DNA from: Escherichia coli
Lineage (GTDB): Bacteria > Pseudomonadota > Gammaproteobacteria > Enterobacterales > Enterobacteriaceae
Direction: 5' to 3' (one strand)
Assembly (NCBI RefSeq): GCF_024700885.2
Contig: NZ_CP117015.1
Length of the DNA: 8,286 nt
The position numbers are program-made. Every line of letters starts with the position of its first letter. Positions within the stretch are counted from its first letter, which is position 1. Of this stretch, positions 1-3,000 are shown in pieces.

Positions 1-3000
1 TCATTGTAATTGCCTTATATGGACGATAGTTGTGCGCATATTGCTATGTTTATGAAGATTGTTAGTTAGTTGACTTATGCATCATTGACAGCGTATCTTC
101 CATTGGAAACGAAAAAACCGCCTTGGCAGGCGGTTTTTCGAAGGTTCTTAGAGTTGGCGCTCTTTGAACCAAGGTAACTGGCTTGGAGGAGCGCAGTCAC
201 CAAAATCTGTTCTTTCAGTTTAGCCTTAACAGGCGCATAACTTCAAGACAAACTCCTCTAAATCAGTTACCAGTGGCTGCTGCCAGTGGCGATAAGTCGT
301 GTCTTACCGGGTTGGACTCAAGACGATAGTTACCGGATAAGGCGCAGCGGTCGGGCTGAACGGGGGGTTCGTGCACACAGCCCAGCTTGGAGCGAACGAC
401 CTACACCGGGCCGAGATACCTACAGCGTGAGCTATGAGAAAGCGCCACGCTTCCCGAAGGGAGAAAGGCGGACAGGTATCCGGTAAACGGCAGGGTCGGA
501 ACAGGAGAGCGCACGAGGGAGCTTCCAGGGGGAAACGCCTGGTATCTTTATAGTCCTGTCGGGTTTCGCCACCTCTGACTTGAGCGTCGATTTTTGTGAT
601 GCTCGTCAGGGGGGCGGAGCCTATGGAAAAACGCCTGCGGTGCTGGCTTCTTCCGGTGCTTTGCTTTTTGCTCACATGTTCTTTCCGGCTTTATCCCCTG
701 ATTCTGTGGATAACCGTATTACCGCCTTTGAGTGCGCTGACACCGCTCGCCGCAGTCGAACGACCGAGCGTAGCGAGTCAGTGAGCGAGGAAGCGGAAGA
801 GCGCCTTATGTGACATTTTCTCCTTACGCTCTGTTGTGCCGTTCGGCATCCTGCCCTGAGCGTTATATCTCTGTGCTATTTTCTACTTCAAAGCGTGTCT
901 GTATGCTGTTCTGGAGTTCTTCTGCGAGTTCGTGCAGCTTCTCACACATGGTGGCCTGCTCGTCAGCATCGAGTGCGTCCAGTTTTTCGAGCAGCGTCAG
1001 GCTCTGGCTTTTTATGAATCCCGCCATGTTGAGTACAGTTTGCTGCTGCTTGTTCATCTTTCTGTTTTCTCCGTTCTGTCTGTCATCTGCGTCGTGTGAT
1101 TATATCGCGCACCACTTTTGGACCGTCTTACCGCCGGTATTCTGCCGACGGGCATTTCTGTCAGACAACACTGTCACTGCCAAAAAACAGCAGTGCTTTG
1201 TTGGTAATTCGAACTTGCAGACAGGACAGGATGTGCAATTGTTATACCGCGCATACATGCACGCTATTACAATTACCCTGGTCAGGGCTTCGCCCCGACA
1301 CCCCATGTCAGATACGGAGCCATGTTTTATGACAAAACGAAGTGGAAGTAATACGCGCAGGCGGGCTATCAGTCGCCCTGTTCGTCTGACGGCAGAAGAA
1401 GACCAGGAAATCAGAAAAAGGGCTGCTGAATGCGGCAAGACCGTTTCCGGTTTTTTACGGGCGGCAGCTCTCGGTAAGAAAGTTAACTCACTGACTGATG
1501 ATCGGGTACTGAAAGAAGTTATGAGACTGGGGGCGTTACAGAAAAAACTCTTTATCGACGGCAAGCGTGTCGGGGACAGAGAGTATGCGGAGGTGCTGAT
1601 CGCTATTACGGAGTATCACCGGGCCCTGTTATCCAGGCTTATGGCAGATTAGCTTCCCGGAGAGAAACTGTCGAAAACAGACGGTATGAACGCCGTAAGC
1701 CCCCAAACCGATCGCCATTCACTTTCATGCATAGCTATGCAGTGAGCTGAAAGCGATCCTGACGCATTTTTCCGGTTTACCCCGGGGAAAACATCTCTTT
1801 TTGCGGTGTTTGCGGCAGAATCGCGTTCAGCGCGTTTTAGCGGTGCGCGTAATGCGACGTTATGGTAAATAGCGATCATGTTATTTGATGTTTTTATTGA
1901 TTATCGCTTTCCTATAAAAAAGTCATTATGACCAGTAACAAAGTAGGAATTTGGAGGGTTTTTCTTCATGCTGCCAAACCCATCTTTTCGTTTCTCTACT
2001 AAAGCTATGAGTCCTATCCCGCTCAGGTAGGCATGCGTCCTAGGTATGTCCGCTTCTGGAATAGAAGTCTGCAAGTTTATTCTTTCAAATGAAGCGCTTG
2101 TATAATGACTGTGATTGTCTCGAACAGCACATAAGTAGATGAACATCTTTAGCGCATAAAGCTCAATCTTGCTTCTTAACTTAAGTTTATGGAATGCTTC
2201 AATCCGTTTGCCATCACGAGATAACAACGCTCTACAAGGCATTTTGCACCAGTCCTTCGAACCATCAAACCCAGGGAATCGGTAGATATTTTTTCGCCTA
2301 ACTTTATCTACTGATAACAGCCCAAGTCTCTCTAAAATATCAATGCCTGATGATATTGATGATCTGCTCAGGGCTGTCAGTTCCGAGAGTTCCTCATAGG
2401 TCGCCTGAGCTGAATAATATGTTATGTAGGTATCTATGTAATGACAGAAAGCCTCTTTACTTTCAGCTCTCATGGACAGCGCTATATACAGTTTTAAGGC
2501 TGCGACCTTATGTGACGGTTTTCCTACCTTGTCATCAGTCCATAAAAGCTCTTTTAAGCGTCCATCTAGTACGAACTTTGAAGGAAATTTTACCCAAGGC
2601 TTCATTGTTACCCCATGCGCATTGCAATAAACAGGATTGATAGAAAGGCGACAAGAACCGAAACCGCCAAGACAAGCGGGGTTAGTTTGTGAGAGTTGTC
2701 TGATAAGTATTTGATTATCATTATATATTTATCGGCTTCCATATAATTTCCTATGGTTTCAGTCTTTTTGATAGGAAAATTTAAGCACGTCTTGGCAATA
2801 TCTATCTAGATATAGGTTAGTCTTTAAAATAAAATTATTCCAATTTTTTCTTTTAAAATCATCTGCTTGAAGCAAAATTGAATCGTCTTTTTAAAGTAAT
2901 CAATAGTTCATGAAAGGGATTGTAGAAGATGTTATGGCGCTGAGGGTGTGGAGCATAAAAGATGCTCTGTCTGGGTGTTTTTATAGCGTATGAAGGAAAT

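Follow-up and report, generated by a model that had tools for sequence, protein, structure and literature searches.

A base-exact breakpoint at the XerD arm of a cer-type site in the mosaic ColE1-like plasmid p8_MLI114 of Escherichia coli

The stretch of DNA analysed here (8,286 nucleotides, called the window) is a circular plasmid, p8_MLI114 of Escherichia coli MLI114 (NZ_CP117012.1), with its start rotated relative to the record. It is composed of a ColE1-type backbone ending in a cer-type Xer recombination site, an AT-rich cargo segment (hereafter the island; 1871-3182, resuming at 7 to about 146) and an IS26-bounded macrolide-resistance unit that interrupts this island. The island starts at the very base that follows the XerD-binding arm of the Xer site, and the comparisons presented below indicate that the 3,176-bp ancestor of the plasmid was a hybrid of two ColE1-like lineages, formed before the IS26 unit was inserted. 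We consider it probable that this hybrid was made by XerCD-mediated exchange between heterologous cer-like sites together with a homologous crossover in the origin. The process that generates plasmid mosaics of this type is already known; the window is a fresh example of the published kind, and a module of the pdif type is not supported.

A sequence-only reading of the window had placed the end of the Xer core at 1870 and the beginning of the AT-rich island at 1871, and the break in homology proved to be base-exact at this position. The plasmid database PLSDB was searched with window 1560-2200 as the query, in which position 311 corresponds to window 1870. Only three of the 858 matched records reached a query coverage of at least 80%, namely the window's own record and two plasmids of 3,176 bp, and the alignment of the Klebsiella pneumoniae plasmid p.P39Z2 also crosses the 1870/1871 junction. 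Among the matches listed (two samples), most of the other alignments stop at query 311, the remaining ends being overshoots of 1-4 bases (312, 313 and 315) or early stops in or before the site (query 152-305). Two apparent exceptions, with query ends at 340 and 327, were discarded as AT-rich chance extensions by megablast, as blastn stops both of them at 1870. All members of the family share the arms of the site, so that visible homology stops at the last base of the XerD arm, and the 1870/1871 boundary is a real and biologically meaningful breakpoint.

On the backbone side, pOSAK1 from E. coli O157:H7 Sakai matches the window from 160 to 1870 at 98.5% identity and nowhere else, being unrelated from 1871 onwards. 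This pOSAK1-like backbone (160-1692 up to the Xer site) comprises the origin, rop (863-1057, minus strand, by annotation) and mobA, which encodes a MobA/NikA-type protein (1329-1652, plus strand; NF041264, 113 bits). The GC content is about 0.50 in windows starting at 801-1601, 0.40-0.44 in those starting at 1801-2501 and 0.25-0.32 in those starting at 2701 and 2801. The island is unrelated to pOSAK1 and resembles p.P39Z2 at 80-95% identity; its only carriers found were a family of 3,176-bp plasmids (one member being 3,151 bp long), the window and p.P39Z2.

The Xer core spans 29 bp on the plus strand (1842-1870). It consists of a predicted XerC-binding arm, GGTGCGCGTAA (1842-1852), identical in pOSAK1 and p.P39Z2, a 7-bp central region, TGCGACG (1853-1859), where strand exchange presumably takes place, and a predicted XerD-binding arm, TTATGGTAAAT (1860-1870), which is identical to the XerD arm of ColE1 cer and whose last base is the homology boundary. 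The core shows no mismatch to a consensus made of a XerC arm, 6-8 nucleotides and a XerD arm, and it is the sole match at ≤5 mismatches in the plasmid, the next-best match having 6; the exact XerD arm TTATGKTAAAT occurs once in the window. Directly upstream lies a discrete block of cer accessory sequences (1693-1841, plus strand) that aligns with ColE1 cer. The whole cer block, from about 1693 to 1870, is found at 88-98% identity across many otherwise different plasmids, and its usual start is at 1693-1699. Within the accessory block, an ARG-box-like palindrome, TGCATAGCTATGCA, lies at 1727-1740, about 108 bp upstream of the XerC arm, and the alignment to ColE1 cer puts it, at the level of sequence, on the ColE1 ArgR box TGCATAGGTATTCA. 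Also common to the window and ColE1 cer are the motif TGCATA..AT.CA, phased T tracts, the motif ATCGCG, and a GC hairpin followed by a T run directly before the XerC arm.

ColE1 cer, which likewise resides on a multicopy ColE1-type plasmid, thus resembles the window's site in its 11-bp arms and identical XerD arm, in its XerC-side accessory block of about 150-180 bp, in the position of the ARG-box-like palindrome about 100 bp upstream and in its phased T tracts; it differs in having an 8-bp central region instead of 7 bp and GGTGCGTACAA instead of GGTGCGCGTAA as its XerC arm. Both sequence features by which a cer-type site is recognised are therefore present, namely 11-bp arms separated by 6-8 bp and about 180 bp of accessory DNA next to the XerC arm, including an ArgR box some 100 bp from the core. 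Judged by these features, 1693-1870 is a bona fide cer-type Xer multimer-resolution site, more than a lone core. A close relative of it is found in the isolate plasmid pEC886 (NC_019079.1), which carries the same 29-bp core within a cer block 94.6% identical to that of the window and which encodes a restriction-modification system of the HindIII family, as does pEC156; the cer site of pEC156 is reported to stabilise that plasmid. Sites of 29 bp with accessory sequences are recognised on small enterobacterial plasmids (PMC11724359). A text search of the literature for the XerC arm sequence returned irrelevant papers only.

The second parent of the hybrid is represented by p.P39Z2, in which the island adjoins a core with the same arms and the central region TGACGCG. 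Identity between p.P39Z2 and the window is 40-62% across the 300 nucleotides upstream of and into the core, 85-95% right after the core and 71-82% along the non-coding distal island as far as RNAI, and the two plasmids share 3 identical bases before the XerC arm. Accessory blocks do not evolve rapidly by nature, since those of the window's type remain 88-98% identical between plasmids whose cargoes are unrelated. Taken together, the comparisons with pOSAK1 and p.P39Z2 confine one recombination joint to about 1839-1871, that is to say to the core.

The other joint lies in the replication control region. In a three-way alignment, the window goes with p.P39Z2 in the island and the RNAII promoter, up to about 146, and with pOSAK1, at nearly 100%, from 160, which places the second joint at 147-160 within the RNAI gene of the ColE1-type origin (109-208, minus strand; Rfam RF00106, 93.6 bits). 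According to this alignment, the joint falls in stem-loop II of RNAI/RNAII, where there is no Xer site and where the parents are homologous, and the hybrid took stem-loop I, part of stem-loop II and the RNAII promoter from the island lineage. The expected oriT region, upstream of mobA, lies within the unbroken pOSAK1-like stretch 160-1870, and the second boundary is thus not at oriT. It was also observed that the loop sequences of RNAI stem-loops I and II (109-160) differ from those of both pOSAK1 and p.P39Z2. Copy-number control and incompatibility depend on the RNAI loops, and the hybrid may therefore be compatible with plasmids of the pOSAK1 type.

The generality of the breakpoint was examined in metagenomes, which were scanned for GGTGCGCGTAA-N7-TTATGGTAAAT; the scan returned 128 sites in 120 loci, and 150 nucleotides on each side of each site were clustered. 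The XerC side fell into 14 visibly homologous clusters and the XerD side into 75 unrelated ones, the joins being base-exact at the XerD arm. The upstream cluster to which the window belongs (25 sites) meets 17 different downstream sequences, so that the search for other cargo at the identical junction, which the sequence-only reading had proposed, found the same backbone with 17 different cargoes. TGCGACG is the commonest of 17 variants of the central region, being present in 44 of the 128 sites and in 18 of the 25 sites of the window's accessory cluster. When different downstream clusters are compared, the number of consecutive bases shared beyond the arm has the geometric distribution expected by chance. 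Seven cargo types stand behind more than one accessory lineage. For instance, loci L068 and L100 are 100% identical over 300 nucleotides downstream of the core and 64% identical upstream, with a run of 2 identical nucleotides before the XerC arm, and in other pairs with the same switch the identical bases next to the core number only 2-11. Across these cores, no stretch of identity is long enough for a RecA-type exchange, which argues for exchange within the core. The core is a recurrent breakpoint across this core family.

Two further observations were made on these sites. Of the 75 unrelated downstream clusters, 74 begin with A, C or G directly after the XerD arm and one (p.P39Z2) begins with T, a bias that suggests a constraint one position beyond the canonical 11-bp arm. 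In addition, several contigs (L031, L034, L035, L039, L067 and L077) each have a pair of ColE1 origins along with a pair of cer sites that are oriented alike; they may correspond to what is expected of heterodimer cointegrates of two ColE1-like plasmids, assembly chimeras being possible.

The IS26-bounded unit occupies 3183-8284 and contains a first IS26 (3183-4002), an IS6-family fragment, mphR(A), mrx(A), mph(A) and a second IS26 (7465-8284). The two IS26 copies are in direct orientation and an 8-bp target-site duplication, CGTCATTG, flanks the unit, its left copy being at 3175-3182 and its right copy at 8285-8286 and 1-6 across the circle. When the unit and one copy of the duplication are removed, a sequence of exactly 3,176 bp remains, 99.84% identical to the Salmonella plasmid NZ_CP093389.1. 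The same uninterrupted plasmid was found in a soil isolate of E. coli and, among complete genomes of the species, in 6 others, of which five carry it at 3,176 bp and one at 3,151 bp. The target duplication and these plasmids with an intact empty site imply that the island is older than the insertion, in agreement with the earlier proposal that IS26 had not brought it, and the IS26 unit inserted into a pre-existing island without being its vehicle. That the island came together with the IS26-mph(A) unit is thus refuted: IS26 does adjoin the island at 3183, which amounts to adjacency only, whereas the duplication brackets the whole unit and its excision restores a plasmid found intact in independent isolates. 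With its 8-bp duplication, 3183-8284 is a standard example of the IS26-bounded mph(A)-mrx(A)-mphR(A) resistance unit, one IS26 having an internal stop. This is the first copy, in which tnpA has a nonsense change (gatctacca at about 3547-3555, compared with gatctgcca in the second copy) and is annotated by RefSeq with an internal stop; the second copy is intact.

From the position of the two joints, the following route can be proposed. A pOSAK1-like parent would have contributed the segment from the middle of RNAI through the origin, rop and mobA to the cer accessory block, and a relative of p.P39Z2 would have contributed the XerD side of the core, the winged-helix gene of the island and the RNAII promoter, up to RNAI stem-loop II. 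The likeliest order of events would be that the two co-resident plasmids first fused by homologous recombination in their similar origin regions, and that the heterodimer, which contained two heterologous cer-like cores as direct repeats, was then resolved at these cores by XerCD together with ArgR and PepA; the two crossovers could also have taken place in the reverse order. The plasmid released would carry the accessory block and XerC side of one parent and the XerD side and cargo of the other. The IS26-mph(A) unit transposed into the island later. Resolving directly repeated sites is the normal activity of cer-type sites. While the anatomy of the site, the two breakpoints, the timing relative to IS26 and the recurrence of the core as a breakpoint are read directly from the sequence comparisons, we infer both the catalysis by XerCD and the cointegrate intermediate. 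Accordingly, the suggestion in the sequence-only reading that the island had arrived by XerCD site-specific recombination holds in so far as the core is a true recombination breakpoint; its more specific form, a pdif- or cassette-type module, is not supported, as no second core beyond chance was found in the window, p.P39Z2 or locus L125 and the far joint is in RNAI/RNAII.

Xer sites have been described as junctions in the evolution of ColE1-type plasmids by Tran 2012 and Zakharova 2002, as cited in PMC6764390, PMC8683028, PMC7399989 and PMC10454011. As summarised by the same four papers, these studies put forward a model in which inter-plasmid cointegrates are resolved by XerCD at heterologous cer-like sites, for qnrB19 plasmids (Tran 2012) and for pECL18/pKPN2 (Zakharova 2002). 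The window resembles the hybrids of both models in having a variable region with a Xer site as one boundary. It differs from the model of Tran 2012 in its second joint, which is oriT in that model and lies in RNAI/RNAII in the window, so that foreign RNAI stem-loops I-II and a foreign RNAII promoter were inherited.

Several points weigh against an exchange catalysed by XerCD in this lineage. The central regions of the window (TGCGACG), pOSAK1 (TGAGACG) and p.P39Z2 (TGACGCG) differ, and the identity between the window and p.P39Z2 at the RNAI joint is short. Intramolecular resolution is strongly favoured by cer-type sites that have accessory sequences, so that a fusion of the plasmids must have come first. 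Moreover, homology recurrently breaks off at the accessory-side end of the cer block too (about 1693-1699) in many plasmids, in which rop is followed by other DNA and then by cer; the cer unit of about 178 bp is thus a discrete block with two sharp edges, of which Xer can account for one only, and sharp edges of modules can therefore have other origins. Finally, if the donor of the island had carried a cer block of the window's type, two RecA-dependent crossovers in the shared backbone would give the same picture without Xer.

These points lead to an alternative in which 1870 is simply the end of a shared and selected sequence, the hybrid having arisen by two ordinary homologous crossovers between plasmids that already had the cer block and the origin in common. 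The conservation of the cer block among plasmids with different cargo provides the long homology on which RecA could act, the RNAI joint is evidently homologous, and the second block edge, also fairly sharp, is inexplicable by Xer. This explanation nevertheless only shifts the problem back, as a base-exact join to a XerD arm is still needed for each of the 75 cargo types. It is also difficult to reconcile with an island found next to two accessory lineages that share only 40-62% identity, the switch between them being inside the core, and with the other pairs that show the same switch with so few identical bases around the core. For these reasons we regard it as rather unlikely, and we retain XerCD exchange at the core combined with a homologous crossover in the origin as the probable origin of the hybrid.

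A different possibility is that a two-site Xer element (a pdif-like module, a circle resembling an integrative mobile element exploiting Xer (IMEX), or a cassette) entered the cer core as a circle with its own Xer site, leaving cores on both sides, the distal one having since decayed. No second core was found at ≤5 mismatches by consensus scans of the window, p.P39Z2 or locus L125, so the two cores of a pdif module were not found. At the distal end of the island there are two weak Xer-like matches, at 3158-3182 joined to 7-11 and at 31-60, each with 6 mismatches out of 22; they lie 49 nucleotides apart in direct orientation to the cer core, and the ancestral sequence of the former is TCTGCGTACATAACAGTCGTCATTGTAATT, the IS26 duplication CGTCATTG being inside it. 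On the plus strand of the cargo alone, in a test devised post hoc, at least two such matches occurred in 2% of shuffles and two within 100 nucleotides in 0.5%, which makes the pair unusual there. A best match with ≤6 mismatches was however reached in 83 of 200 shuffles of the whole plasmid, that is at chance level, and no enrichment for Xer cores was detected in the last 200 nucleotides before the RNAII start of 49 other cargo intervals. Both candidates have poor XerD arms, whereas distal cores elsewhere, recovered by a search for near-perfect XerD arms, have good ones; furthermore, the boundary with pOSAK1 at 147-160 in RNAI is away from both. Two different accessory lineages precede the island, the switch between them being located in the core, and all copies of the island have the same origin context on their distal side. 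Segments with a direct Xer core at each end, delimited to the base, do exist in related plasmids, as described below; a two-site element in the window nonetheless seems to us very unlikely.

The known two-site systems differ from the window in the same respect. The pdif modules of Acinetobacter have two flanking cores in inverted orientation and no cer-type accessory sequences; the window resembles them in that its cargo abuts a XerC/XerD core and in that the same cargo is found behind different neighbours, and it differs from them by its single core and its full accessory block. IMEX use chromosomal dif as their integration site and have a site on either side once integrated. Like them, the window would have used the host XerCD and a dif-like core for joining DNA; unlike them, it shows no evidence of a circular element or of a second site.

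The search for a Xer site on the far side of the island, also proposed in the sequence-only reading, was thus negative beyond chance in the window, p.P39Z2 and L125; it did uncover second cores in direct orientation in other related plasmids. A second Xer-like core is present in 12 of the 49 distinct cargo intervals, and in all 12 its orientation is direct. The search for tandem cores demanded a near-perfect XerD arm, and the XerC arms found were degenerate; 25 of the 27 sites with degenerate XerC arms are downstream of a canonical core on the same strand. One or two extra downstream cores, always in direct orientation, were found in loci L006, L010, L015, L017, L023, L024, L035, L036, L058, L060, L064, L066, L067, L069, L073, L074, L082, L088, L092, L093, L105, L112, L115 and L123, and the isolate plasmid pEC886 (L136) shows the tandem-core arrangement at about 276-725. 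The tandem-core intervals examined each hold a small open reading frame (ORF). The clearest case is an interval of 670 nucleotides with a 151-aa ORF, 95% identical in L010 and L024, in which similarity extends from the first XerC arm through the last base of the second XerD arm, both outer flanks being unrelated. A GC hairpin and a T run lie directly before several of the distal cores; cer accessory sequences were not detected upstream of the distal cores of related plasmids, and no pair representing an empty site for a tandem-core cassette was found in the 120 loci.

From this arrangement, the tandem-core intervals look like Xer-delimited cassettes, sometimes arrayed. It could then be proposed that the XerD arm of cer-like sites on enterobacterial ColE1-type plasmids is the entry point of a Xer-dependent cassette system, in which segments between directly repeated Xer cores would pass from one plasmid to another, and that the window's island is a segment captured in this manner, its distal core having decayed to the relics at 3158-3182 plus 7-11 and 31-60. 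The support for such a system is at the level of the family, in related plasmids including pEC886, and it is weak for this window, so that we consider the proposal quite unlikely here. In the literature, dif modules are described as unique to Acinetobacter (PMC13141974) and all Xer sites on small enterobacterial plasmids are stated to have accessory sequences (PMC11724359); given these two statements, the tandem-core arrangement may be under-described.

The assembly of a small cryptic ColE1-type plasmid, ahead of its gain of macrolide resistance, can be traced from these results, a whole cargo compartment having been swapped at a host-operated Xer site along with the RNAII promoter and RNAI stem-loops I-II. 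They also provide a clean natural data set, with a break at the final base of the XerD arm in hundreds of plasmids and with different accessory blocks in pairs of plasmids that have the same cargo. They support the published and largely inferential view that modules are exchanged among enterobacterial plasmids by XerCD. In practical terms, cargo beside cer sites is to be treated as exchangeable between ColE1-type backbones without a transposon.

The island gene nearest to the core encodes a 234-aa winged-helix protein (1901-2605, minus strand) and is convergent with the cer site. As the sequence-only reading had noted, its stop codon is at 1901-1903, which the ORF confirms; it is 30 nucleotides from the XerD arm. 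The adjacency of a gene to a Xer site had been taken as a hallmark of Xer-dependent modules; such adjacency is not diagnostic, since ColE1 exc2 ends 4 nucleotides from the arm and homologues of the 234-aa gene occur without an adjacent core. An 84% aa-identical homologue adjoins a cer-like core in L125, a 76% homologue is carried by a large plasmid of Kosakonia with no Xer core nearby, and full-length homologues of 35-43% identity are found on large plasmids near rep/par genes and, oppositely oriented, within the cargo compartment of further ColE1-like plasmids. Given these varied contexts, the gene is a recurrent plasmid gene that is not intrinsically tied to Xer sites. An inverted repeat spanning the junction (agcgat at 1871-1876 and atcgct at 1903-1908) is present where the sequence-only reading had seen it, and its fold is at chance level (-4.9 kcal/mol, z = -0.8, 42 of 200 shuffles being at least as good); a role as a terminator or structural element was consequently rejected, the repeat being no better than shuffled sequence.

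The protein itself gives only weak HTH matches in Pfam and NCBIfam, the Pfam one being to HTH_36 (E 9.5e-4), and its N-terminal part resembles the winged-helix domains of phage replication initiators (PHROG 270, E 1e-7). A Rep function was not adopted, as this similarity is restricted to the winged-helix part. A sequence search of the PDB with the 234-aa protein gave no match, and its AlphaFold model (pLDDT 44) was too poor for a fold search. It should also be noted that the octamer TTTCCTAT occurs three times, at 1908-1915, at 2747-2754 (plus strand) and at 2771-2778 (minus strand), where 0.17 occurrences are expected and none of 200 shuffles reaches 3. One copy is located at the 3' end of the gene and the other two form an inverted pair about 140-170 nucleotides upstream of its start; the three copies may be candidate operators for the winged-helix protein.

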